Shown here piece after piece: positions 2,344 to 63,652 of a stretch of 64,000 nt of DNA. Position 1 is the stretch's first letter. Every line of letters begins with the position of its first letter. The translations under genes were made by a program, and so were the position numbers. Below the pieces are notes generated by a model. That model was not told the DNA's origin and made no database searches. It worked only from the letters and a program-made list of their open reading frames with translations. This DNA comes from an uncultured virus (IMG/VR IMGVR_UViG_3300029939_000002). Its lineage: Duplodnaviria; Heunggongvirae; Uroviricota; Caudoviricetes. The DNA is taken from the IMG/VR virus record IMGVR_UViG_3300029939_000002. The stretch is one strand, 5' to 3'.

Positions 2344-3339
2344 TTATGCTGCCCACTGCATGTATACCATGCCATTGTTACCACCATCGCCAGTAGCATT
2401 TCGTAAACAACGATCGCCATAACCAGCATTTCCATCCCAACCGACAAGTGTCATACCACCAGGAGATGTTGTAGATCCGGCATACATTGTACCAGCTGTA
2501 ATAACACTAATCATATCGGACCAGTTTGCAGCAATAACATAACTTCCACCACCACCACCAGCATTACTATTAACATTGTCGCCACATCCGCCAGAGTAAC
2601 CACCACCACCACCACCACCATTGTTATAACCATTACCACCGCCACCCCAACCACCTCTGGCATTAGCATTGCCATTAAATGCATAACCACCTGGATTAAG
2701 ACCAGGTGTTGACGTACCTTGGTTGTTAGCATATAAAGGACCATAAATACCTGCACCACCAACACCATTAGTAGAAGAAGCACATAGACCATTGGTACCA
2801 GGAGTACCACTATTACCAGAATCAGTTAATCCGGCATTAGCATTATTACCAGGCTTACCATTAGTAACTAAAGAAGTACCTCCACTATTTCCTGCACCAC
2901 CACCACCACCACCGGCCGCTAATACAAGTATACCATTTAAATAAACGAAAGTTCCACCACCACCACCACCACCCCAACCAATCCATGGGCCACCGCCACC
3001 ACCAACATAAACATCTAGTATATCACCAACATTCGGAGAAATAACAATACTAGCAGCAGCTCCACCACCACCATAAAAACCACCACCCGCACCCCAAGCA
3101 TTAATAAGAAGAGATCCAGTTTTTCTATAAAATCTAATTTGTTGAGGAGCTGATAATGGCTGAGTAACCCAACCATTTGTTTCATTTGCTTTATTCGATA
3201 AATCATAATAATTAAAAATGCAAGACCGTTCAGGGCGAAGTATAAAGTTCCCAGCCGTGGTTACACCAACGGCTGGGTTCTTCAATACCTGTCCGAATGC
3301 TAACGGTCCAACGGGAGGAATAATATGCTGTCCTGCCAT
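2344..3339 (-). CDS. Glycine-rich adhesin-like tail protein
   Basis: AWGAGGG, GDILDVYVGGGG, LVLAAGGGGGG, GGYSGG and NGMVYMQW; colinear with 1201..2331. Confidence 0.65.
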   Translation of the reverse strand: MAGQHIIPPVGPLAFGQVLKNPAVGVTTAGNFILRPERSCIFNYYDLSNKANETNGWVTQPLSAPQQIRFYRKTGSLLINAWGAGGGFYGGGGAAASIVISPNVGDILDVYVGGGGGPWIGWGGGGGGGTFVYLNGILVLAAGGGGGGAGNSGGTSLVTNGKPGNNANAGLTDSGNSGTPGTNGLCASSTNGVGGAGIYGPLYANNQGTSTPGLNPGGYAFNGNANARGGWGGGGNGYNNGGGGGGGYSGGCGDNVNSNAGGGGGSYVIAANWSDMISVITAGTMYAGSTTSPGGMTLVGWDGNAGYGDRCLRNATGDGGNNGMVYMQWAA

Positions 3340-4326: not shown

Positions 4327-5763
4327 TTAGAAAGTCAGAGCTGCACCCCAACCACCGCCAGAATTATTAGCATTATTTGTAGCAATAGCACTTGAAATAG
4401 CAGTATTCATCTGAGAAGATGTTGAATAATTATTTAATGCAGATGACAACGTAGTAGATAGTGCACTACTGGTAACATAACTAGACAACGTAGTAGATAG
4501 TGCACTATTAGTAACATAAGCAGATAACGTAGTAGTGAGTGCACTATTAGTAGCATAAGCAGATAACGTAGTAGTGAGTGCACTATTGGTAACATAAGCA
4601 GATAACGTAGTAGTGAGTGCACTATTAGTAGCATAATCAGATAACGTAGTAGTGAGTGCACTATTAGTAGCATAAGCAGATAACGTAGTAGTGAGTGCAC
4701 TATTAGTAGCATAATCAGATAACGTAGTAGTGAGTGCACTATTAGTAGCATAAGCAGATAACGTAGTAGTGAGTGCACTATTGGTAACATAGTTCTGCAA
4801 AGCTGTATTTATTGTAGTTGTTACAGCATTTGTTGTTGAATAACTATTTAAAACATTTCCTAAAGTAACGCTTGTAACATACGATGACAGTACATTCACA
4901 TTAACATATCCTGATAATGTAGATGATAATGCAGAATTAGAAACATAATTAGAAAGATTGATATTCGATAAAGCTGTATTTAATGCTGTTGTTGTGACAT
5001 AGTTAGAAAGATTAATGTTCTCTAATGCAATTGTTAATGCACTATTAGTAACATAATCAGATAGAGATGAAGATAAATACTCATTTGTGATATAATCGAT
5101 AAGAATGCCATTTAATGAGGTTGTTAACGCAGCAATAGAACTTGTATCACTCGTCAGCAAAGCATCAATTTGTTCAAGAGTAGATAGTGTTGCTGGCGTG
5201 ACACCAGTGATAGTCTGTATAGCATCCTGAAGCTGCGTACCAGTAACATAATCGCCACTTGGACTATATGCAGCCAAGGAAGCTACTAACGAATTATTTG
5301 TAACATAACCAGACAATACAGAAGTTAAACTAGGTTCAGTAACAAACTCAGGAGCAGCATCACTATTGATCTGAAGTTGTTCTGGAGAAATAATTAATGC
5401 ATATCCAGCAATAGCTTCATTGAAGTTAATAATAAGACTATTAGCATCAACAGGTGTATAGCCAGGGCTGAACATTTGTCCATCGGTAGTAACAACTTGA
5501 ATAAATGGATACATATAACTGAGATTATGTGTAAGTGTCCAGGTATTGCTTGCAATGGCCTGGGTTATAACCATAGAGTTACTTAAATTAGTAACAGGGA
5601 AATAGGTAGCGACACCTTTAACGTATGTATATAAATACACAACGTCATTAATTGTGTAATATGTATTCGGTATAGGATTCGAAGGAAAATCGGTCAACTG
5701 AGATCCGATATTCACACCACCCATAACCGTTACATCACTACCGATGCGCTGAATATTACTCAT
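4327..5763 (-). CDS. Tail fibre-like protein with 13-residue shaft repeats
   Basis: NTWTLTHNL module, TLSTLEQI coiled segment and many YVT/YATNSALTTTLS repeats. Confidence 0.75.
   Translation of the reverse strand: MSNIQRIGSDVTVMGGVNIGSQLTDFPSNPIPNTYYTINDVVYLYTYVKGVATYFPVTNLSNSMVITQAIASNTWTLTHNLSYMYPFIQVVTTDGQMFSPGYTPVDANSLIINFNEAIAGYALIISPEQLQINSDAAPEFVTEPSLTSVLSGYVTNNSLVASLAAYSPSGDYVTGTQLQDAIQTITGVTPATLSTLEQIDALLTSDTSSIAALTTSLNGILIDYITNEYLSSSLSDYVTNSALTIALENINLSNYVTTTALNTALSNINLSNYVSNSALSSTLSGYVNVNVLSSYVTSVTLGNVLNSYSTTNAVTTTINTALQNYVTNSALTTTLSAYATNSALTTTLSDYATNSALTTTLSAYATNSALTTTLSDYATNSALTTTLSAYVTNSALTTTLSAYATNSALTTTLSAYVTNSALSTTLSSYVTSSALSTTLSSALNNYSTSSQMNTAISSAIATNNANNSGGGWGAALTF
4441..4791 (-). 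repeat. Coding tandem repeat, 9 x 39 bp
   Basis: The + strand unit gcagataacgtagtagtgagtgcactattagtagcataa is repeated head-to-tail and encodes Y[AV]TNSALTTTLS[AD]. Confidence 0.95.
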
Positions 5764-10905: not shown

Positions 10906-12864
10906 TCAGAGACTAAGACCAACTGTAAGACCCATGAATGTATCGAAAAATCCAGGAGGTTTGTCTTCAAGATAAGTCTTAGGATTTGTAAGATATGCCA
11001 TTTGTTTTTCATATGCAAATTGTGCACCAATAGATCGTCTTGGAATATTACGACCAAGACTATCGAACATGACATTATTCGGATCTCGAATAATTGGAAT
11101 TCTATAATTATCTTTAGATGTTTTAAGATAAGATTTGAGGACGATTTCGATATGAGCAAAATTGGTTGTAATTTGTTTATAAACAAGTTCACTAAAATCT
11201 CGTAAGACATCAGAAATAGAGGTATATGAAGCAACACCACTGAGCATAAAATTGCTCAAACTGTTATTAAATTTAACCATACTACTACTCTCAATGGTAT
11301 ATCTCATAATCGGATATTCAGCTGCATTAAACTCATCAAGAGGAATCCAAATCATATTGTCAATAGTACAACGATGGATATTAGCTTTAATGTATTTCAA
11401 GAATTCTAATGAGAAGAACGGGATAATATTGTTCATTGGCATTGTTGCATATTGTGATACAAGTTCACCAGTATCTCCGCGTATAAAGAGCATTTCTGTA
11501 ATACTACTAAAATGTTGTTCGTGAATAAACTTATCATTCTTAATACTATTAAGATCATTTATATTCTTCATATTAATAAAAGGTATACCAACCTTAACTG
11601 GTTTGATATTAAATTCTTCTCTAAGATAAATATCATTTTGTCTAATAAATAGATATTCTTTCATTTGCGGAGGAATACCATAGAGAACAGCATCGGTATT
11701 CGTAAAGTGTTTTGCACTCAACACAAGTTGTGATGCATCACTCATATAGTTTTGTGCAGCTTCTAAACCAATATTTGTAGAGGGTAAGAATTGTGCTGCC
11801 AATGCACCAAGACATACCGCACATGTACCATTGGTGTGATTACATGTAAATGGAGAACGCATGTTAACATATTTACCATAAAAATTAGAGACGTTTTCTC
11901 TATTGATCATAGTGAGAACACCATTTTCATAAATCAATTTACCATCCATTTGTCCTTTACTAGCAATACCAGCATGGATATATACTTGGATAAAACGATC
12001 TGTTCCACAATCACCAGCATATAACTTTTGGATAATAGAACTCTGAATCTGTTGTCTGCGATTACTATATTGGCTATCCGGCATAGCATCCTTATTGTAA
12101 TAGATTGTCTTCTTGCCAGCAAGACTTTCTGTTAAATAAGAGTGTGTGCTGTTTAAACCATCTAAGTAATTTTCAGTAATAGGACGCATAACAATAGTAT
12201 CGTCAGCATCGGTACGATATCCAATACCAACAAAAACCTGACCAATCTGTTTCTTACTCATAGAACCAACTTTAAGAGGAATAGAAAGAATAGTGTCGTT
12301 ATCACTAATCTCTTTAATAAAAGTATCTATTTGATTGGCTATTCTTTTCTCTACATGTTTAATACCAAGACGTTCTTCTTTCTTAATATCATACTTTCTA
12401 TGCTGATCATATTCTTGATCGAATAACATATCACATATTTCAAATGCAGAGCAAGACATTTCGTAAGAACCAAGTTGCCATGACACCATACGATGAATAT
12501 TATTATCACACATACAAATATCATCATTTAGTGTTAAATACTTAAGATCATTTCCTAATTTATCTTTTACATACTCGTTAATATAATTAGGATTTCTTTC
12601 ACGAATAGTATTCTCAATATGTGTTAATACAGCAGTCTGATTTTCTTTAGTGATTATTTTTTCTAATAAACAATGTTTTCTAGAAGGACGGACATTTCTA
12701 TCAACAAGAATTTTCCAAAACCAAACATTTAACATTAAGAACTTTCCAGATATTTCCAATGGACCATCTTCAAGATCCACAAGGAAAATTTCATTCTTAT
12801 TAGCTAATAACTGTTTCGTTAAATCAAAATCTATCTTTGTATTAAAAACATCAAACTTGATCAT
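10906..12864 (-). CDS. Non-virion RNAP beta' C-terminal subunit (phiKZ gp74-like)
   Basis: GDCGT, RSPFTC..GTCAVCLG zinc site, NIGLEAAQ..SQLVLSAKH trigger-loop-like segment, and HIEIVL. Confidence 0.9.
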   Translation of the reverse strand: MIKFDVFNTKIDFDLTKQLLANKNEIFLVDLEDGPLEISGKFLMLNVWFWKILVDRNVRPSRKHCLLEKIITKENQTAVLTHIENTIRERNPNYINEYVKDKLGNDLKYLTLNDDICMCDNNIHRMVSWQLGSYEMSCSAFEICDMLFDQEYDQHRKYDIKKEERLGIKHVEKRIANQIDTFIKEISDNDTILSIPLKVGSMSKKQIGQVFVGIGYRTDADDTIVMRPITENYLDGLNSTHSYLTESLAGKKTIYYNKDAMPDSQYSNRRQQIQSSIIQKLYAGDCGTDRFIQVYIHAGIASKGQMDGKLIYENGVLTMINRENVSNFYGKYVNMRSPFTCNHTNGTCAVCLGALAAQFLPSTNIGLEAAQNYMSDASQLVLSAKHFTNTDAVLYGIPPQMKEYLFIRQNDIYLREEFNIKPVKVGIPFINMKNINDLNSIKNDKFIHEQHFSSITEMLFIRGDTGELVSQYATMPMNNIIPFFSLEFLKYIKANIHRCTIDNMIWIPLDEFNAAEYPIMRYTIESSSMVKFNNSLSNFMLSGVASYTSISDVLRDFSELVYKQITTNFAHIEIVLKSYLKTSKDNYRIPIIRDPNNVMFDSLGRNIPRRSIGAQFAYEKQMAYLTNPKTYLEDKPPGFFDTFMGLTVGLSL

Positions 12865-14951
12865 GGGCTAATAACCTCTTTAAGTTCAGATTCAATCTTA
12901 ATACCTAAAGTTGTAATCATGTGACTGAACAAATTTAAGACACTATTCTTCTTAACAAGTTCTTCATTAGTAATATTGATACGTTCAATATTTGTAGGAT
13001 TCTTATTCTTTAAAATATCAGTAACTAGAACATTAACACCAGTAGGACTGTTTGCATGTAGGCTCGTATAACGAATCATTTCATTTGCATCTTCGCCCAT
13101 ATCCATACCAACAGTTCGCCATTCATCTTCGCCATATTTCAATGCACTAATACGAACCGTATATTGATTTTTAATATTAGGATTAGATGACTTCATAGGA
13201 ACGCCAAATTGATTAACATGACCAACACCAGGTGCTGTCTGATAAGGAACTTTACAAAGCGCGATAACATACTTAGAACCAATACAAACAGGTTTATCCG
13301 ATACGAACTCAGCAATGATATTGCCATCGCTATCAACGCGTTTATAAGATGCTTTAGAAATACCAACTTTATACTTCTTTCTTAAGAAATCAAAATGTTT
13401 CATAGTAATGTGTTTTAAGAACGGAGGCAACCAAATATAAATACCACCTTCATCACTAGTACTTCTTCCAAAATGCACACACTGACTTTTAAAATCTGGA
13501 TTCGTTGCAATAACTTGTTTTAGATAATTAGGATTAAGATCATTATAATACTCAAATAACATATCGATTGCTGATTGTTTATCTGTCTTATATAGCTCAA
13601 CAGCTCTTCGTCTAACAAATTCAGAAATACGATTAATACCTTGTTCTATCCATTGTCCTGTATTCATGCGTGCAATACAAGATGCAGGATCTAAAACAAG
13701 ATCAGCAACAAATCCATCTTCATCAACAGGCATACAGCTCTTTGGAACAATATGTCCAATAACACCTTTCGCACCTTCACGACCAGTAGTTTTATATCCA
13801 AAGGACATATGGCGTTTTTCAATATATGTAACGACAATTCTCATAAATTCGATAGGACGATTATTCCTACCAATAATACCAAGCTTGCATTTTGTATAGA
13901 TATTTTTAACTCGTCTACCTTCAGCAATTAATCGTTTCATACAATCAGAAACTAATCTATTAAAAGCACTTGAGCATTCTAAGTTACGATTCGTCTCATA
14001 AACCTTAACAATTTCTTCACAGTATTTAATATGACTATCAGAATACTTCTTAGCCTGGTCATACCACTTGCCAGAGATTTTAGCACCGCGAGAAATCTGA
14101 ACATCGATATCGATAACTTTAGCGCCTTTATGTGCAACATAACACATATCATGCATAGCCTGAGGTTTTGTTAATTCATTAGGCATTGTATCTGCAATAA
14201 ATGTTTCTGGTGTTGTTTTTCTAAATGCAGAAATAATACCATAATCAGAAATAGTTTCACCAAGATCAGGAAGGAATTTATAGTTAACATCATCACCATA
14301 AAGATTAATCGGGATGTTATTACTTCCGATTACAAAAATCTGTTTATAGATAGCACTAGAACTTAAGTTATCTGCTAATTCATCGGAGATCCACATGGAA
14401 TCTTCAATGATATGGGGAGATGTCATATATGCAACATTAACATTACGACCCATACAGTAAGCACCATCTTTATTAATAGGAGATCTTGAGAGAACAGTTT
14501 CTTTTAAAAGGACTTCACCAGCTCGAAGAGAATGTCTATTGCTTAAAACATTTTCATAACCAAAACCATCAGCAACTTTAGTATATGGACTAACAATAAA
14601 GTGATGGATTTTACAATCATCGAGACCCTTACAGATAACTGTATGTGCCTGCTGAATATAATTGATGTTAGGATACTTTTGAACAACAGCAAGAATAATC
14701 ATATCTTGTTCTCTATGAGTATCATTAATATCAAATTGTCCAAAGTCATATTCTTTACCAGTAAATTGAAATGCAAATTGACTACCATCAACTAAAATAG
14801 TTTGATTGACATGCGAACCGTGCATATCAGTGCGCTGACCAGAACTATTCTTTAAATGAGGATATAAACCAGGCTGTAATCCAAGAATACGACTATCAAC
14901 ACTAACATTATCTAAACTCGGAAACTCTTCGGCGATTTGTAACTTTGACAC
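12861..14951 (-). CDS. Non-virion RNAP beta C-terminal subunit (phiKZ gp71-73-like), uninterrupted
   Basis: MGRNVNVAYM..IEDSMWIS, GYKTTGREGAKGVI, ARMNTGQ and KYGEDE correspond to RpoB conserved regions. Confidence 0.92.
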   Translation of the reverse strand: MSKLQIAEEFPSLDNVSVDSRILGLQPGLYPHLKNSSGQRTDMHGSHVNQTILVDGSQFAFQFTGKEYDFGQFDINDTHREQDMIILAVVQKYPNINYIQQAHTVICKGLDDCKIHHFIVSPYTKVADGFGYENVLSNRHSLRAGEVLLKETVLSRSPINKDGAYCMGRNVNVAYMTSPHIIEDSMWISDELADNLSSSAIYKQIFVIGSNNIPINLYGDDVNYKFLPDLGETISDYGIISAFRKTTPETFIADTMPNELTKPQAMHDMCYVAHKGAKVIDIDVQISRGAKISGKWYDQAKKYSDSHIKYCEEIVKVYETNRNLECSSAFNRLVSDCMKRLIAEGRRVKNIYTKCKLGIIGRNNRPIEFMRIVVTYIEKRHMSFGYKTTGREGAKGVIGHIVPKSCMPVDEDGFVADLVLDPASCIARMNTGQWIEQGINRISEFVRRRAVELYKTDKQSAIDMLFEYYNDLNPNYLKQVIATNPDFKSQCVHFGRSTSDEGGIYIWLPPFLKHITMKHFDFLRKKYKVGISKASYKRVDSDGNIIAEFVSDKPVCIGSKYVIALCKVPYQTAPGVGHVNQFGVPMKSSNPNIKNQYTVRISALKYGEDEWRTVGMDMGEDANEMIRYTSLHANSPTGVNVLVTDILKNKNPTNIERINITNEELVKKNSVLNLFSHMITTLGIKIESELKEVISP

Positions 14952-26451: not shown

Positions 26452-26844
26452 TTATGTGAATGACATGGTTATTTGATTATTGGTTATATTAACATTAGAA
26501 GTTAAACTATTCCATTGTCCATCTTCGATCCACATTATTTCAATAGTAATATCATAAAATCCAACTTTACTTGATGCATTATAAGTAACTTCAACTGTAT
26601 AGTTATTTTCTCCAAATAATCTTGCCATAACATTCATTAGTTGTTTTTTAGTATTTGCTACATACTGATCAGGAGTATTTTCATATCGAGTTAATAAGTC
26701 ATGATTACTAATTAATAGATCTGGAAATAAGTCAGAAATACCCGCCTTCATACTAAAAAAATAATTCAACATATATGTTACTTTATCGGTACCGGTTTTT
26801 AATAAACCAGTTGGTCCTAATGTTGGAATGACAATTGTTGCCAT
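26452..26844 (-). CDS. Conserved hypothetical protein (possible gp25-like fold)
   Basis: 130 aa; IPTLG N-terminus followed by a helix-helix-three-strand pattern. Confidence 0.65.
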   Translation of the reverse strand: MATIVIPTLGPTGLLKTGTDKVTYMLNYFFSMKAGISDLFPDLLISNHDLLTRYENTPDQYVANTKKQLMNVMARLFGENNYTVEVTYNASSKVGFYDITIEIMWIEDGQWNSLTSNVNITNNQITMSFT

Positions 26845-29521: not shown

Positions 29522-31108
29522 TTACAGGTACATGCCGCCGAGACCACCTTCGACAGTATTGGCACCCATGCTCAGACGAGCCTCGCTATAGCCCTTGGCC
29601 ATATCGATCAGCCAGTTGGTGTTACTGCTGCTGGTATTGCTGTTGGACTGCTTGATGGTCACGCCGTTGTTGATAGCATTGACCAGGGCCTGCACAAAAG
29701 ACGGCTTCAGGATGCTGACAATGTTGTACGACAGCGGAATGAACTTCGAATGCTTGGCGACAATCGAAGCCTGGTAATGCTGGTTCTCATAGACGTCCAG
29801 CAGGTTCGAGATTTCCTCAGCAGGATATCCCTTACCGCTGACCAGTGACATATAGTCGACGACGCGACTATCGGTCGGGCTGTCAGGGTAGTTGACGATG
29901 CCGGTGATGACCGTCGAAGCGACCGAAAAGATGTCGCTATTGCCATCATACGGCTTGCCCATAAAGTCACTGAAGGCATCGATGACCCGCTTGTTGTTGC
30001 CATCGTCCATGAACAGCTTGAGCATGGACAGCGTCGGAACGCCAGGGATGTTATCGATAGCCAGAACAGGAGTCAAGCAGGCGATCTGGACGAACTGCTT
30101 AACGTCGTCCATGTTGTCGCACGACATCAGTTCATTGCGGCTGTTGTCCAGAACATCCGGCATCAGGCGGCCGAGGTTCGGCTTTCCGCTTTCGAATGAA
30201 GTATAAGGCGACAGCCACAGACCATCATAGAGGAACTTCGACCCACCCAGGCCGATGGCGAGAGGAGCGAAGGCATTGATCGGCATGATCGAGAACACAG
30301 AAGAAATGTGCACGATCGGAGCCAGAACATGCGGAAGCTTTTCGCGAGCCAATGAGTTGTTCGGAGGATTGGTCCGAACGAAGCTGGTGTAGCCGCCGAC
30401 GACGAACAGCTGTTTCGGTTCCGTCGGTTCGTTGTTGGAGACCGACAGTTCGTCACGAACAGGAGAGCTGACAACGATGCCGTAGTCGAAACGCGGCTTG
30501 GTCACGAACGGCCAATGGCGATCGTAGTAGTTGTGGACTTCAGCCAACGACGTCGAGATCGTCAAGGTCGAACCCTTGAAGAAGCTGATCGACCCGTAGA
30601 CATCCAGATTGCCAGGCTTGTTCGCCGAGAACGTAGACCGCAGATGGGCGATGATGGCGCCGACGCGAGTTTCGTTCTGGTAGTCTTCGGGAATGACGAT
30701 GGCATTCTGAATGATGGTGCAATTCGCGAAATCAGCTTCGAGGCGCTTGCGAACGCTCGGGAAATAAGCGATGAACGCCTTGCGCTTGAATTCAAGAGTT
30801 CCGAACTGAACGCCCATGTCGGGGAACAGCAGAACATAGAACATGTTGTCGACCATCACCGCCAGAGTGTTGGACGGCTCAGGGATGCGAACGACCTTGG
30901 CGCCGGGGATTTCCTTTTCCATACGCTCGACGAACTTCGATAGCTGCGGGGACTGCGTCGAGAAGCTGTCAAATTCGGACAATGAACTGTGCAGGAGAGA
31001 ACGCTTCTTTTCCTGCTGAGAATTGCTGAAACCAGGAGCCTGCTTTTCGCCCTGCGGAGCCTTGGGAGAATCGCTTTCCTGAGTACCAAAACCGGAAACA
31101 CTAGACAT
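29522..31108 (-). CDS. chmA: Chimallin (phage nuclear shell protein), divergent
   Basis: Immediately upstream of beta'-N, the canonical position. Disordered termini, ordered motifs PRFDYGI / VGGYTSFV / PIVHISS / LAI..W / NLGRL, GC-rich codons and its own terminator. Confidence 0.72.
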   Translation of the reverse strand: MSSVSGFGTQESDSPKAPQGEKQAPGFSNSQQEKKRSLLHSSLSEFDSFSTQSPQLSKFVERMEKEIPGAKVVRIPEPSNTLAVMVDNMFYVLLFPDMGVQFGTLEFKRKAFIAYFPSVRKRLEADFANCTIIQNAIVIPEDYQNETRVGAIIAHLRSTFSANKPGNLDVYGSISFFKGSTLTISTSLAEVHNYYDRHWPFVTKPRFDYGIVVSSPVRDELSVSNNEPTEPKQLFVVGGYTSFVRTNPPNNSLAREKLPHVLAPIVHISSVFSIMPINAFAPLAIGLGGSKFLYDGLWLSPYTSFESGKPNLGRLMPDVLDNSRNELMSCDNMDDVKQFVQIACLTPVLAIDNIPGVPTLSMLKLFMDDGNNKRVIDAFSDFMGKPYDGNSDIFSVASTVITGIVNYPDSPTDSRVVDYMSLVSGKGYPAEEISNLLDVYENQHYQASIVAKHSKFIPLSYNIVSILKPSFVQALVNAINNGVTIKQSNSNTSSSNTNWLIDMAKGYSEARLSMGANTVEGGLGGMYL

Positions 31109-39860: not shown

Positions 39861-41051
39861 ATGTCTATGTCAACACCCATAGTTATTCAAGGTATTTTTC
39901 AAAGATTAAATGCCACACAAGCAGATTGGAATAATACATCAGTTCCTATTCCATATGGTCTAATTACTATAGATAGTAGCACGGGTATCATTAAAATAGG
40001 TGATGGTGTTACACTTTATGCCAATTTAAAAACATTATGTAATATAAATGATTATATTAATCTTTTCAATATTTTAAATTCGAAAGCCGATACAACCAAT
40101 GCTACCTTTACAGAAAGTTGTAATGTTCCAGATCTTGCTACTGATAATAATTCATCTGGCGCTGCCAATACCAGGTTTGTGAATGCTGCTATCACAACAG
40201 CTCTATCAGAGATTACACAGACAGTTGGTACTGGACAATCAGATTTAACAAACGAACTTGTTACATTCGAACAATCAGTTGATAGCAGTATTGCTCAGAT
40301 TATACAAGATTTAAATAGTTATGAAAAAATCACCGATCTTGATACTACATTATTGGATTATGTCACTTTAGATGCATTAAATAAAATATTGGCTGAATAT
40401 AGCCCTGCTGGCGATTATGTCATGTCTGATAATATTAGTACATATTTAACTGATTATGTAACAAATAAAATACTAACAGCAACTTTACAGAACTATGTAA
40501 CGAATACTGCATTAGCTACAGCTTTAGCAAACATTGATCTTTCCGAATATGTATCAACGACAGTATTAAATACTACATTAGAAGATTATACATCTAATGT
40601 GAGTGCAAATTCCAATACTCCATTTAATTCTATTCGGGTTGTTGGTACTGGAACAACACCGGCTGATAAATTTATTGATGCTAGTAATGGCTATTTCAGA
40701 ATTATGGACAATACCGATGCTGGAAATGCACTAATGACTATTGATACTTCTGGTAACTTAGTGGCACTGGCAAATCTTACTGCATATTCTGATATTAAAT
40801 TAAAGAAAGATTTAAAAGTTATTGAGGATTCTATCAGTAAGATTAAACAATTGACTGGATATACATACACTCGTATAGATACTGGAGAACGCCAGTCTGG
40901 TCTTATTGCCCAGGATATTCAAAAGGTTTTACCAGAAGTTGTCATTAATAATAATGATACATTAAGTGTTGCTTATGGAAATATGATGGGTATTATTGTA
41001 GAAGCAATAAAAGATATAGATAGACGATTGTCAATTATAGAAAATAAATGA
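39861..41051 (+). CDS. Tail fibre with C-terminal intramolecular chaperone (peptidase S74)
   Basis: Paralogous N-terminus (IKIGDG); AYSDIKLK..GLIAQD..VLPEVV..LSVAY..VEAIK is the S74 signature. Confidence 0.88.
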   Translation: MSMSTPIVIQGIFQRLNATQADWNNTSVPIPYGLITIDSSTGIIKIGDGVTLYANLKTLCNINDYINLFNILNSKADTTNATFTESCNVPDLATDNNSSGAANTRFVNAAITTALSEITQTVGTGQSDLTNELVTFEQSVDSSIAQIIQDLNSYEKITDLDTTLLDYVTLDALNKILAEYSPAGDYVMSDNISTYLTDYVTNKILTATLQNYVTNTALATALANIDLSEYVSTTVLNTTLEDYTSNVSANSNTPFNSIRVVGTGTTPADKFIDASNGYFRIMDNTDAGNALMTIDTSGNLVALANLTAYSDIKLKKDLKVIEDSISKIKQLTGYTYTRIDTGERQSGLIAQDIQKVLPEVVINNNDTLSVAYGNMMGIIVEAIKDIDRRLSIIENK

Positions 41052-47390: not shown

Positions 47391-48962
47391 ATGGTCAAAG
47401 GAACTATAACAGGGTTTGACTCTATTACAACTGGAGATGATACTGTAAAAATAAATAAAGATACTCTTTCATTGTCGGCACTTGTAGATAGAATAAAAAC
47501 AATTGAAAAAGACTTTGATCCGAATACTATTTCAACATTAAAAGATATTATCAATAATCACTTAATGGATAACTCAAATCCTCACAATATCGATACTATG
47601 AGTATTAATCTTGATGTTATGCAAGCTATTTACAATGCCTGGTTATTATCTGGAAATGTTGGGACTTACAAAGATTTTGAAATACAGATATTTGGTGTTA
47701 TGGGAGAATCTTCTTTTGATTCTGTTATTGTTACGAATACAGAAGTTGAAGACTTGATATCCCTTCATAATCTGGATAAGAATGCACACTCTAATCTTAT
47801 AAACTCTTTTATGCCTGGTATTCCTCCTACATCAGATCCTGTCTTTTCTTTTAATGGATTTATAAATTCTATTCTCGGATCATATTCTTTAAGTATTCAG
47901 AAAATTAATACTATTGATATTAATGGTAATCTTTCTAATATAAATGGATTAGTTGGAGATTATACATTCAATGATCCGATGTATCCTATTTATGGAGCTT
48001 TATCAAATATTAATACATCTAGTGAAGATCTATCAAATATATCATTAGTAAATACATCTATAAGACCATCTTCTATTTCTTCATTATCTAAATACTATCA
48101 ATTGAATGATAATTCTTCTACGAATATGTTTGGATTTACGTATCCATTTTCTTTATCTTCTTCAAATATATTGAATTTAAATTTTATGATATATCCATTA
48201 AATTCAAATAGATATATAAAAGTATTTATAACAGATAAAGTATCTGATTATTTTTATATTGATCTTCAAGAACAAACTATCATCTCTACATGTAGCGACT
48301 TTACAACCTATTATTCTTTTTTACCGAATGGTTCTATTAAATTAGGATTTGATTATAAATCAACAAATGATATTACTTCTTCGGTTAGTGTAATTTCAGT
48401 TCCTTCATTAGACAGCGATATATATTTAGGAACAGATGCTCCTTTATTTATTATCTATGGATTACAACAAACTATTATTCCTGGCTTACATCCTCTTATT
48501 ATTACGAACGGATCACAACAAACAATTCCTGTTAATACTTTAAATATTCCTATTTCATTAAATTCTCAAGAAGGTATGTTCGTATTAAGATTTGTAGCAT
48601 TTAATGATACGACTGAAAAAGTATTATTATCGTTTGATAATGGATTGACGTTTGTTATTATGAATAGCATTTTAACTATAACCTGTCCATACGAAGATAC
48701 GAACTTACAGATTACAACATCAATAAATACTGGAATTGAAACAGCGATAGCATTTGGATATTCTGTAGATGGTATTTCTATTCTAGCAAAGAATAAAACA
48801 TTAGTATCATTAGAAGCATATGGATTTACGATGGACAATACAACATTAATGACGATAGGAGATACTCAATATCCATTAAATGGTTATGTTGGAGAATTTA
48901 CATCTTATAATAGTAGTGATACCAATGGAAATCAATTAACATTTTTAGTAGGAGCATCGTAG
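47391..48962 (+). CDS. Putative baseplate/tail protein
   Basis: HLMDNSNPH and HNLDKNAH fibre-type His motifs; lectin-like beta-rich C-terminus. Confidence 0.6.
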   Translation: MVKGTITGFDSITTGDDTVKINKDTLSLSALVDRIKTIEKDFDPNTISTLKDIINNHLMDNSNPHNIDTMSINLDVMQAIYNAWLLSGNVGTYKDFEIQIFGVMGESSFDSVIVTNTEVEDLISLHNLDKNAHSNLINSFMPGIPPTSDPVFSFNGFINSILGSYSLSIQKINTIDINGNLSNINGLVGDYTFNDPMYPIYGALSNINTSSEDLSNISLVNTSIRPSSISSLSKYYQLNDNSSTNMFGFTYPFSLSSSNILNLNFMIYPLNSNRYIKVFITDKVSDYFYIDLQEQTIISTCSDFTTYYSFLPNGSIKLGFDYKSTNDITSSVSVISVPSLDSDIYLGTDAPLFIIYGLQQTIIPGLHPLIITNGSQQTIPVNTLNIPISLNSQEGMFVLRFVAFNDTTEKVLLSFDNGLTFVIMNSILTITCPYEDTNLQITTSINTGIETAIAFGYSVDGISILAKNKTLVSLEAYGFTMDNTTLMTIGDTQYPLNGYVGEFTSYNSSDTNGNQLTFLVGAS

Positions 48963-61192: not shown

Positions 61193-61228
61193 ATAAGGGG
61201 GTACGGGCAATTGCCCGTACCCCCTTAT
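61193..61228. terminator. Perfect 36-bp loopless palindrome between convergent genes
   Basis: ataagggggtacgggcaa|ttgcccgtacccccttat. Confidence 0.7.
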
Positions 61229-61234
61229 AATTGT

Positions 61235-63652
61235 CTATTTCTTCAATTTAATACGAATACCATTTTCATCCATATCACCAGTATAATAATCATTGTTATT
61301 AAAGATTTCATTAACTTCTGGAGTTAATTTATCATATACATCATCTCCAATAATATCAATAATGTATGAAGACTGATGAAAATCTTGACCAATATGTTTA
61401 TTATTTAAAACAAATATACTGGAACGAAGAAGTATATTAATAAAAGCAACAGCATCCATATCTTTACGGAATTCTTTAATATAAGTTTTATAATTAATAA
61501 GATTATCTGTATAATCTACTTTAATGGTAGGACTGGTGTTTTTCTCAACTTTATCATAATCATCAAAGTATTTAAATGTAACACAATCCTCTATATAGCT
61601 CATCAGCTTCCAATTAGTAATCTTCTCAATATACTTATGATGTTTAACTAGTTCTTTAACAATATAAGGATTACTAATTACGATTTCATTAGTATTACAT
61701 TTGCTCGGTATATCTTTTCTCAGTACCAAGGTTCCAAGTATTGTTTTCAAATCAATATTGTTAGAGTATGTATGATGTTCTGACCACTCAATAAGTTCTG
61801 GTGGTTTTACCCTAATACTAAATATAAAACAATCATTACTATAACTTCTATACTTCAAACCATACTTACGAATAGGATATTTAATATCGTTTATAGTAAA
61901 ATATTCCTCAACATAAATAGATTTATTCTTAATATATTTAATAATATCATCTATTTTAAGAAAACTAAGTTCAGTAGTTTGGACATGGATATCATTTGTA
62001 TGTATAATATTAAATTTACTATCATTAACAACATCTTCACCAATTTTACAAGCTTTAAGAACAATCTGATTACAAATGTCTCTAAACTTTGAATAGTGGT
62101 CATTCTCATCAACATGTACATAGCTATCTGGAACGATATGTTCAATAACACCTTCTGTACCTTCACGACCAGTAGTTTTATATTCAGATTTTTTATTTAA
62201 TTTTTCTTTCTCATTATGTAAAATTATTTTAACACGATACGGCTTTTTTGCCAGTAAACAAAAGCGATGAAAAGTAATACTTAGTTGTTCACCATCTATA
62301 GTCACACCCCACAATGTCACAAAGTTATATACTTCTTCAATATATTGTTTATGTTTATAAAGTTCATCGCAGACATATTTATTACTAGTAATTTTAATAT
62401 GTTTAAAATGATCTGTTTCGGATTTAAGTGTATGTATAGCTTCTTTAATCTTCAAATTTTCTTCATATTTAATTCTTTGATTCATATTAATTTCATCAAT
62501 ATTTGCTTTAGTAAAATTAAAGTAAAATCTTGTACCCGCAATACATTCTTCAGATTTATCAAAATTTACATTATATCTAGCAATAGGATATGCAATATCA
62601 TTAAGATAGAATTTCTTTTCAGCATAAATAGTAAGAGTTTTTAAGAGTTTAATAACTTTATTTAAATCAATGTTATTATCTTTTTCCATAATAAAAGTAG
62701 TACCAGAAATAATATCACCTGAAGTAATGTTTTGAATATATTCTTCAGTTTTTTCACGAGCCACATTACAAATATTTTCGGTATATTCTTGTATCGTTGT
62801 CATGCAGACCTCGTTGTCTTGTGTGTTATTAAACTTATTATTAGTGAATACAACAATACATGTAGCTTCGTTTATATTAAAAAGACTATAACCATATTTT
62901 TCATTAATATAGTTAATAATATCTTTAGTAATACCAAATTTTTCTTTCTCTAACAATAGTTCTACTATCAATCCTGATTTAATTGTCAGTTTAGTCTTTC
63001 TTTTATTATATGCAGAAATAATAAAATCCGAAAGGCGTTTCAATGTATGTTCATAATTAGCTACATCATCAGTTGATTTTTCATTATATTTCTCAAACTG
63101 GAATATTACCCTAGTACCTTCAGTAATTGTTTTAATAAGTTTATATTCGACAACATTCAATTTAAACTCTTTATCAAAACATTTAAATGTGATATACTTA
63201 GTTGGGGGACAATCTGTTAATGCTTCACGAACATCCTTGAAAACTTTATTTTTCATATATTCATATACAGTAAATATCTTACCATCGCCATCAATAATAG
63301 CTTTAGAAATTTTACCATACAAATCAGTAACATATTGCATATGTAGGGTTTTTGCTTTTGCGGCACCGTATTTAATAGCATCAGGATTTATAGAAATAAG
63401 AATACGTTTTGACTCATGATAAATAGTGACATAGTCAACAAAAATATTACCTTCCAATCTACTAACAAGATCGTTTAGATATTTATCAATAGTATAAGTT
63501 TCTTTCATATATTTATCTAAATTTGGATAAAGGTCTTGTATAAGAATACTCTTTTTATAATCAACGATGTGACGTTTTGTATAAACATCAGTAATCTCAT
63601 TAATAATACGTACATATTCTGTTTTAATAATTTTAGATGATGAAAACTCCAT
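61235..63652 (-). CDS. Hypothetical protein with internal domain repeats and an embedded RNAP-derived segment
   Basis: Repeats IYAEKKFYLNDIAYPIARY / IYVEEYFTINDIKYPIRKY and SNKYVCDELYKHKQYIEE / SNPYIVKELVKHHKYIEK. Confidence 0.8.
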   Translation of the reverse strand: MEFSSSKIIKTEYVRIINEITDVYTKRHIVDYKKSILIQDLYPNLDKYMKETYTIDKYLNDLVSRLEGNIFVDYVTIYHESKRILISINPDAIKYGAAKAKTLHMQYVTDLYGKISKAIIDGDGKIFTVYEYMKNKVFKDVREALTDCPPTKYITFKCFDKEFKLNVVEYKLIKTITEGTRVIFQFEKYNEKSTDDVANYEHTLKRLSDFIISAYNKRKTKLTIKSGLIVELLLEKEKFGITKDIINYINEKYGYSLFNINEATCIVVFTNNKFNNTQDNEVCMTTIQEYTENICNVAREKTEEYIQNITSGDIISGTTFIMEKDNNIDLNKVIKLLKTLTIYAEKKFYLNDIAYPIARYNVNFDKSEECIAGTRFYFNFTKANIDEINMNQRIKYEENLKIKEAIHTLKSETDHFKHIKITSNKYVCDELYKHKQYIEEVYNFVTLWGVTIDGEQLSITFHRFCLLAKKPYRVKIILHNEKEKLNKKSEYKTTGREGTEGVIEHIVPDSYVHVDENDHYSKFRDICNQIVLKACKIGEDVVNDSKFNIIHTNDIHVQTTELSFLKIDDIIKYIKNKSIYVEEYFTINDIKYPIRKYGLKYRSYSNDCFIFSIRVKPPELIEWSEHHTYSNNIDLKTILGTLVLRKDIPSKCNTNEIVISNPYIVKELVKHHKYIEKITNWKLMSYIEDCVTFKYFDDYDKVEKNTSPTIKVDYTDNLINYKTYIKEFRKDMDAVAFINILLRSSIFVLNNKHIGQDFHQSSYIIDIIGDDVYDKLTPEVNEIFNNNDYYTGDMDENGIRIKLKK
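62101..62186 (-). repeat. Dispersed direct repeat of nvRNAP beta 13715..13800
   Basis: Ungapped manual alignment gives 72/86 identical, including a 25-nt exact run. Confidence 0.9.

Follow-up and report, generated by a model that had tools for sequence, protein, structure and literature searches.

The window analysed here, the whole 64,000-nt stretch of DNA from the uncultured virus record IMGVR_UViG_3300029939_000002 (IMG/VR; Caudoviricetes), carries inside an 805-aa orphan gene an 86-nt segment copied at the DNA level from the gene for the beta subunit of the phage's non-virion RNA polymerase (nvRNAP). The copied peptide is under no polymerase-like constraint. The segment is one of several short patches in this genome that exceed the number found in shuffled genes and that pair conserved (core) genes with orphan genes. 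We consider that this patch and the others probably arose by short-patch ectopic copying from core genes into tolerant orphan genes, in the manner of SPDIR (double illegitimate recombination of short patches).

The copied segment

Positions 62101–62186 of the window match 13715–13800 at 72 of 86 nt without gaps, both on the minus strand and in the same codon phase. The 14 differences comprise 12 transitions and two transversions, and Lys395 of the donor (AAA) has become Glu (GAA) in the copy. The match, its shared strand and frame, the count of transitions and the change of the lysine to Glu had been given in the earlier note on this DNA and were reproduced exactly, as was the position of the patch between two internal repeats of the 805-aa protein (Table 1). 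The repeats align with each other with a score of 148, compared with a best of 79 in 200 shuffles. Self-BLASTN gives the focal match an E value of 3.5e-19 within the window and 3.7e-18 within a 208-kb record (G002), which is identical to 59 kb of the window and on which the genome-wide work was done; about 16 kb of the longest assembly (229,851 bp) lie beyond what was seen. The match scores 94.5 bits, against 46.1 bits for the best match in 12 codon shuffles of the open reading frames (ORFs) of the genome. Donor and copy are 48 kb apart, and the two proteins are alike over the patch only. Ancient homology and convergence were rejected because synonymous sites are mostly identical and nothing aligns outside the patch.

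The donor gene matches phrog_3295 (E 1e-114), PF00562 and the PDB chain 7ogp_C (E 4e-38). These matches bear out the identification of the copied segment as the GDK..GRHGNKGV region of RpoB. By alignment offset, donor Lys395 corresponds to residue 1073 of E. coli beta.

Table 1. Features of the window discussed in the text (positions in the window; strand given where assigned).
Position	Strand	Feature	Remarks
12861..14951	-	Donor gene, phiKZ gp71-73-type nvRNAP beta subunit	696 aa, uninterrupted
13715..13800	-	Source of the copy (aa 384-413, C-terminal subunit of nvRNAP beta)	Lysines K387 and K395 are conserved
13769..13770	-	Counterpart of the site where group I introns sit in phiKZ gp71/gp73 and in L089/L090	Ala394/Lys395; no intron here
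26591..26628	-	Donor of the second patch, in a conserved 130-aa gene (phrog_3294)	38 nt (89%), 52.5 bits
28255..28294	-	Possible but weak donor, within the gene for RNAP beta' (phrog_2987)	6 transversions, 1 transition
61193..61228	.	Perfect GC-rich 16-bp hairpin between the converging polymerase and orphan genes	Terminator-like
61235..63652	-	Recipient gene, 805-aa orphan	Convergent with DNA polymerase gene
61610..61960	-	Internal repeat 2 of the orphan	aa 565-681
62101..62186	-	Captured 86-nt patch, in frame	aa 489-517 of the orphan; 72/86 nt to 13715-13800
62321..62671	-	Internal repeat 1 of the orphan	aa 328-444

Misassembly, a concern of the earlier note, was rejected because the junctions are identical in other assemblies and both are spanned by contigs (contigs rather than raw reads). 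The patch with 90 nt on each side, a 266-nt stretch that includes both junctions, is identical in five of five loci. The exact 805-aa protein occurs on 19 contigs from three sources (JGI/IMG, Logan and ENA). The junctions were checked in the assembled contigs of four of the 24 listed runs (three DNA, one RNA), which may belong to one sampling campaign. Single contigs cross both junctions in two of the three DNA runs (61330–63557 with 0 differences; 61390–62263 with 1 difference), with the polymerase copy on a separate contig at similar depth; in the third DNA run the patch is uncovered among the pieces listed. The RNA run yielded a 180-nt contig (61993–62172) over one junction, which is too weak to serve as a sign of expression.

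No ortholog of the 805-aa protein was found in phages, nor in a set of 5.8 billion proteins searched at near lengths only, with the top 7,999 candidates scored. A set of 1.84 billion representatives gave just a 56-aa fragment (P0004), and viral and metagenome contigs gave identical copies only. Five related virus records are without an ortholog, the single weak match lying in the polymerase gene of its record. The comparison of orthologs with and without the segment, which the earlier note had in view, came to nothing: identical copies and the one fragment were all that these searches returned. Atlas searches with the orphan gave nothing usable, and a single-sequence fold (predicted local distance difference test score of 30) was not used. 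On one 49-kb contig the gene is broken into two parts of 192 and 602 aa (P0003/P0039), and a 738-nt contig encodes the 56-aa N-terminal piece, which is 90% identical to the 805-aa protein (P0004). Both are assembly errors or broken alleles.

Direction of copying and constraint

K395, M407 and P408 occur in every one of the 25 homologs aligned, and G385 in 24 of them. These four residues are retained in the polymerase and replaced by E, V, H and E, respectively, in the copy, so the polymerase gene was the donor and the orphan gene the recipient. Lys404 of the donor runs the opposite way. Here the copy has Asp, as do 20 of the 25 homologs, so either the donor would have changed after copying or the patch would have come from a close relative.

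Over 28 codons, the proportion of synonymous differences between copy and donor (pS) is 0.19 and that of nonsynonymous differences (pN) is 0.16; 10 of the 28 residues differ. Judged from these substitutions, the focal patch is a fairly recent DNA copy that has since drifted and encodes no conserved peptide. Purifying selection on the copied peptide, as expected of a peptide mimic, was not seen. Taken alone, the focal segment is most likely a drifting relic without function.

Other core-to-orphan patches in the genome

The 187 ORFs of the 208-kb record were compared all against all by ungapped BLASTN, and overlapping ORFs, six paralog pairs and matches in the first 60 nt were removed. Nine matches of at least 40 bits remained, seven of them of at least 42 bits. 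All are sense and in frame, and none is off-frame or antisense. Shuffled ORFs gave means of 0.8 (at least 40 bits) and 0.4 (at least 42 bits) over five shuffles, and a mean of 0.25 with a maximum of two (at least 42 bits) over 20 shuffles. Three patches (94.5, 59.8 and 52.5 bits) lie above the best shuffled score of 47.9 bits from the 20 shuffles. The earlier note had pointed to a search for further snippets of core genes; what it did not remark is that the copy is one of several core-to-orphan patches.

In each of the seven patches, one partner gene is shared with other jumbo phages and the other is without a match in 10 genomes. Of the 187 ORFs, 115 have no match in the 10 other phage genomes, and such a pairing is expected with a frequency of 0.49 per pair; PHROGs agree. 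The focal patch measures 86 nt and the others 30–52 nt. All seven keep the frame and strand of the donor, more than stop avoidance predicts (P 4e-4). At 34 bits the shuffles themselves give 30.4 chance matches in frame and 4.7 off frame, a ratio of about six.

The second patch, from the phrog_3294 gene, sits in frame in a 247-aa orphan outside the window (G002 127538–127575). The weak match in the beta' gene is probably due to chance.

The clearest mosaic in the genome is a 254-aa orphan that lies 7.5 kb past the window (G002 141012–141776). It contains three consecutive in-frame patches of 52, 30 and 33 nt from three unrelated core genes: one of phrog_3328, one for a virion protein (phrog_3181) and that for topoisomerase II. 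The three lie within 122 nt (G002 141235–141356 = L014:1235–1356, 7.9 kb past the window end), and the first two overlap by 5 nt. Such a cluster has P 4e-5 under random placement, a post hoc value. The protein is found on 22 contigs, and just a one-residue variant was found as its relative. An origin of these patches as CRISPR spacers was rejected, there being no repeats between them.

Patches in other genomes and strains

The same pipeline was applied to 10 other genomes (phiKZ, G010, SA1, Proteus phage 10, RAY, pVa-21, G007, G009, G011 and T4). In phiKZ, an in-frame 33-nt patch (97%) from the virion polymerase gp178 is present in the gp232 tail (230030–230062), and gp10 (4396–4421) shares 26 nt with gp181, 100% identical and in frame. 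Neither varies by presence or absence: the gp10 patch is in four of four alleles read, and all 47 records carry gp232 along its whole length with an identity of 98% or more. In the metagenomic relative G010, 59 nt (85%) from the phage's own beta' gene lie in a 158-aa orphan (L151:2377–2853) with a hydrophobic mid-region. This patch keeps 18 of 19 residues of a conserved beta' segment and its differences are mostly synonymous (pN 0.05, pS 0.65). Of all the patches, it is the one most likely to have been retained by selection or derived from a relative.

No match of at least 46 bits was found in Proteus phage 10, RAY, pVa-21 (220 of 232 kb), G007, G009, G011 or T4. The excess in SA1 (four matches of at least 46 bits vs 0.4) was not counted, as on inspection it consists of shared tails of gene families and acidic low-complexity tracts. 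An antisense match of 249 bits in G010 was dropped because it looks like a paralog seen through a shadow ORF. The pattern is recurrent and not universal, and among the 11 genomes the present one has the most clear cases.

Strains of phiKZ were also compared. The tail gene gp131 of ANB1 carries a strain-specific 35-nt patch that matches its distant paralog gp135 (89345–89380 vs 94713–94747) and that is absent from phiKZ and 124.01; the two paralogs are 24% identical. This is direct evidence of short ectopic copying in this phage group, though between paralogs. In the comparison of phiKZ, ANB1 and 124.01, 11 of 30, 3 of 14 and 12 of 29 strain-polymorphic coding patches have a distant match at a loose threshold, and most of these are 15–23-nt matches at chance level or in repeats. 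A strain-polymorphic case in gp180 was rejected as antisense.

An intron insertion site inside the copied stretch

The earlier note regarded the RNAP motif as a homing site for introns. This holds: group I introns of phiKZ and of the relative loci L089 and L090 insert inside the copied stretch, and the phiKZ gp71-73 site maps to Ala394/Lys395, within the patch and 31 nt from one end. The equivalent position in the copy is 62155–62156. In phiKZ, the gp71 exon ends with HGG and the gp73 exon begins with KGV, and the solved spliced chain confirms the join. Rfam places a group I intron between gp71 and gp73, and one occupies the corresponding point in L089 and in L090. Thus phiKZ and 2 of 11 loci checked are occupied. 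Three of 35 polymerase homologs stop at residues 391–394, one of them 42% identical (the four shortest phage-type matches were tested). The close polymerase relatives P0018 and P0025 end at residues 391–392, two or three codons before the phiKZ site, and may mark additional intron positions within this motif.

Positions 13772, 13770 and 13769 account for three of the 14 differences, so that the copy departs from the donor at three of the four junction bases. This clustering has P 0.013 for a 4-nt window, 0.052 for 6 nt and 0.20 for 10 nt; under random placement, three differences come together in some 4-nt window in 54% of cases. We regard it as a weak hint that the copy has escaped cutting. 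The copy retains a perfect match of 25 nt directly upstream of the junction. Rfam detected no intron over G002 and the window. A PHROGs scan of 165 of the 187 ORFs detected no homing endonuclease or reverse transcriptase, the sequence seen being all but about 16 kb of the 229,851-bp genome.

The codon before the empty intron site in the donor (window 13770–13772) is GCG, which is unusual at 32% GC. Group I splicing needs a T at the end of the upstream exon, and occupied sites end in T (GGT in phiKZ, GCT in L089); the GCG allele may for this reason resist intron invasion.

Proposed mechanism

Under the SPDIR-like reading, the source would be the RNA polymerase gene of the phage itself or of a very close relative, and the target would be the linker between the two repeats of a fast-changing orphan gene, where later drift would proceed without polymerase-like constraint. 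The process would be a recurring one, in which 30–90-nt pieces of conserved genes end up in frame and sense inside orphan genes, the focal piece being the largest. We infer that a single strand or broken 3' end of the donor would anneal at short chance homology in the recipient and then be fixed during replication or repair, either SPDIR-like or by template switching. The three patches placed end to end in the 254-aa gene suggest serial switching. Core genes would be intolerant of patches and orphan linkers tolerant of them, which would give the core-to-orphan polarity. The in-frame bias may reflect chance homology between AT-rich coding sequences, most of which is in frame, together with the survival of tolerable proteins. 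In the focal case, a nick by the intron endonuclease of a co-infecting relative might conceivably have supplied the donor end. As none of the other donors is known as a homing site, some general process of copying would be needed in any case.

Several points weigh against this reading. Four of the seven patches are individually marginal, and one of these is chance-like. Retention of frame and strand in all seven requires a further bias beyond stop avoidance; the sixfold in-frame excess of chance homology and the 76% of coding DNA that lies on one strand could supply the rest. The pN and pS of the G010 patch are unlike free drift, and seven of the 10 other genomes lack a match of at least 46 bits. 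The sole strain-polymorphic case, among 14–30 coding patches per pair, involves paralogs rather than unrelated genes. When repeat 2 of the orphan is used as a proxy for the empty site (both tails contain YKT), the result is not significant (P 0.86). Finally, no patch-free allele was found in the orthologs, contigs, records and runs searched, which is why the mechanism at the junctions is inferred.

A broader claim, that some jumbo phages routinely build the variable parts of orphan proteins from in-frame 10–30-residue pieces of their own core genes, with breaks at polymerase homing sites as one source of donor ends, is advanced only tentatively.

Alternative explanations

The strongest alternative is that nuclease breaks are the main source of patches. 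The intron endonuclease of a co-infecting relative would have cut the intron-less polymerase gene at Ala394/Lys395, the broken end would have been captured ectopically, and the junction in the copy would then have changed and escaped cutting. The intron site inside the patch, its occupation in phiKZ and two other loci, the homologs that stop at residues 391–394 and the three differences within 4 nt at the site (P 0.013) are consistent with this. So is the origin of three of the five patches of at least 50 bits (G002, phiKZ and G010) in RNA polymerase genes. In addition, some 150 nt separate the gp178 patch of phiKZ from base 3215, the target of gp210 (PMC11620839). However, the cluster of differences fades with other window sizes and arises readily under random placement, the searched part of the genome holds no detected intron or endonuclease, no interruption of the G010 donor site appears in any of the 60 rows shown of 159, and none of the remaining donors is known as a homing site. 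We consider nuclease breaks unlikely as the main source; they may instead act as a trigger within SPDIR-like copying. To this extent the earlier note's idea of an intron- or reverse transcriptase-mediated scar survives: a nuclease-break scar is possible as a trigger, and the reverse-transcriptase part is not supported, with none in the 165 of 187 ORFs scanned.

The orphan could instead display a polymerase epitope that binds a polymerase partner or a host sensor, as the earlier note had also suggested. Conservation of frame and strand in all seven patches, the 18 of 19 residues kept by the mostly synonymous G010 patch and, weakly, the RNA-library contig over part of the focal patch fit such a mimic. 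The focal patch itself does not: pN is close to pS, 10 of 28 residues differ and the most conserved positions are hit, with Lys395, Met407 and Pro408 (25/25 homologs) lost. The RpoB motif, moreover, sits within a folded barrel close to the active site and is no free surface peptide. A mimic is therefore very improbable.

No more credit can be given to the proposal that the copy is kept as a functional decoy, a spare target that would divert a competitor's homing endonuclease from the polymerase gene, which is essential. Introns do target the site, which has 25 nt matched perfectly upstream of the junction, and intron endonucleases are weapons between co-infecting jumbo phages according to two studies (PMC11620839, PMC12908238). 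A working decoy would retain the junction; the copy differs at three of its four bases and by 16% overall, and no intron or homing endonuclease was found in the searched part of the genome. One extra site would presumably titrate little, cutting the copy would still break the genome, and the other patches would be left unexplained.

Least credible of all is that a reverse transcriptase (of a retron, group II intron, diversity-generating retroelement or the host) copied polymerase mRNA into the orphan: all patches are sense relative to both genes, but with 76% of coding DNA on one strand, same-strand DNA copying also yields sense patches, adenines of the coding strand account for just 4 of the 14 differences with the donor as template and 8 with the copy as template, and neither a reverse transcriptase (among 165 of the 187 ORFs) nor RNA of a group II intron or retron was found, with about 16 kb unseen.

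Genome context

The source genome is that of a phiKZ-like jumbo phage with 32% GC. It has split multisubunit RNAP genes, a phiKZ-type capsid, PhuZ and a genome larger than 200 kb, and the runs that contain it are labelled as peat metagenome. Among its products are UvsX-like, SbcCD, RuvC-like and RNase H proteins, which speak for the proposed copying.

A 528-aa ORF upstream of the beta' gene (window 29522–31108, minus strand) has no match in the PDB, PHROGs or Pfam. Its location upstream of the gp55-type gene is that of chimallin in phiKZ, the protein whose gene marks Chimalliviridae. The large terminase subunit is 968 aa long (G002 80348–83254, L011:348–3254), with DnaC-like and primase matches at aa 71–267, and may contain an insertion such as an intein. 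The motif AGATATATATTACT recurs in intergenic DNA upstream of many G002 genes (for example 47576–47620, 77855–77898, 93561–93605 and 112529–112572) and is likely the early promoter of the virion polymerase. Tandem repeats of 39 nt occur in tail-fibre-like genes (window 4367–4873, 2–218 and 40480–40573) and are common to genes on both strands.

Implications

The origin of orphan genes is described as an open question in PMC12315717. The patches suggest that patching from a virus's own DNA is a little-noticed route to new protein sequence in such viruses. Jumbo phages are rich in orphans, and in-frame core-to-orphan patches provide a countable signature of one source of new sequence, which can be tested in silico over thousands of genomes and in phiKZ with its two patches. 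Such patches also cause false domain and motif matches in annotation. If the broader claim on jumbo phages is true, these phages would have a route to new protein sequence by shuffling at the scale of peptides, sometimes with several pieces in a row. Since drift would erase the traces fast, the few patches that can still be recognised would represent just the latest share of a larger contribution, and function would explain why some of them, the conserved patch of G010 for instance, were kept.

Comparison with known systems

The closest process is SPDIR, for which 10.1101/2023.11.22.568220 gives patches of 3 to about 100 bp. The focal patch (86 nt) falls in this range, and its donor is a non-homologous locus of the same genome. 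As here, SPDIR patches come from a non-homologous locus, possibly of the same genome, and have no repeats or mobile-element ends beside them. There, however, SPDIR is a very rare, mostly harmful and RecA-suppressed bacterial mutation seen under laboratory selection, whereas this phage genome contains several fixed patches that are in frame and lead from core to orphan genes, with three in tandem in one gene. The 254-aa gene also resembles the products of microhomology-mediated break-induced replication and of fork stalling and template switching (PMC2621351), in which several short templated pieces from distant loci are joined end to end. These are described for eukaryotic rearrangements; the present case has no large rearrangement and consists of in-frame coding pieces.

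The gp71/gp72/gp73 group I intron of phiKZ, with its HNH endonuclease, concerns the same gene family, and its insertion point lies inside the copied stretch. It is listed as predicted in PMC10914365, with splicing unseen in that study. Homing by PhiPA3 gp210 (PMC11620839) is a further comparison case. Unlike both, the present case has no detected intron or endonuclease and no split gene; instead, exon sequence that flanks an empty site has moved into an unrelated gene.

Gene conversion between gp131 and gp135 of ANB1 is likewise a short in-frame transfer (35 nt) between distant loci of a phiKZ-like genome. It joins paralogs, whereas donor and recipient here share nothing outside the patch.

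Diversity-generating retroelements consist of a template repeat and a variable repeat with adenine-specific differences, and of a reverse transcriptase. The likeness lies in two diverged copies of about 90 nt, one of them inside a gene. Here, in contrast, the changes are not adenine-specific, the copy is mid-gene, the template is an essential coding region and no reverse transcriptase is among the scanned ORFs, including those around both copies.

No description of fixed in-frame core-to-orphan patches in phage genomes was found in the literature searched, which lay mostly outside subscription journals and supplements. The class of mechanism is already known.

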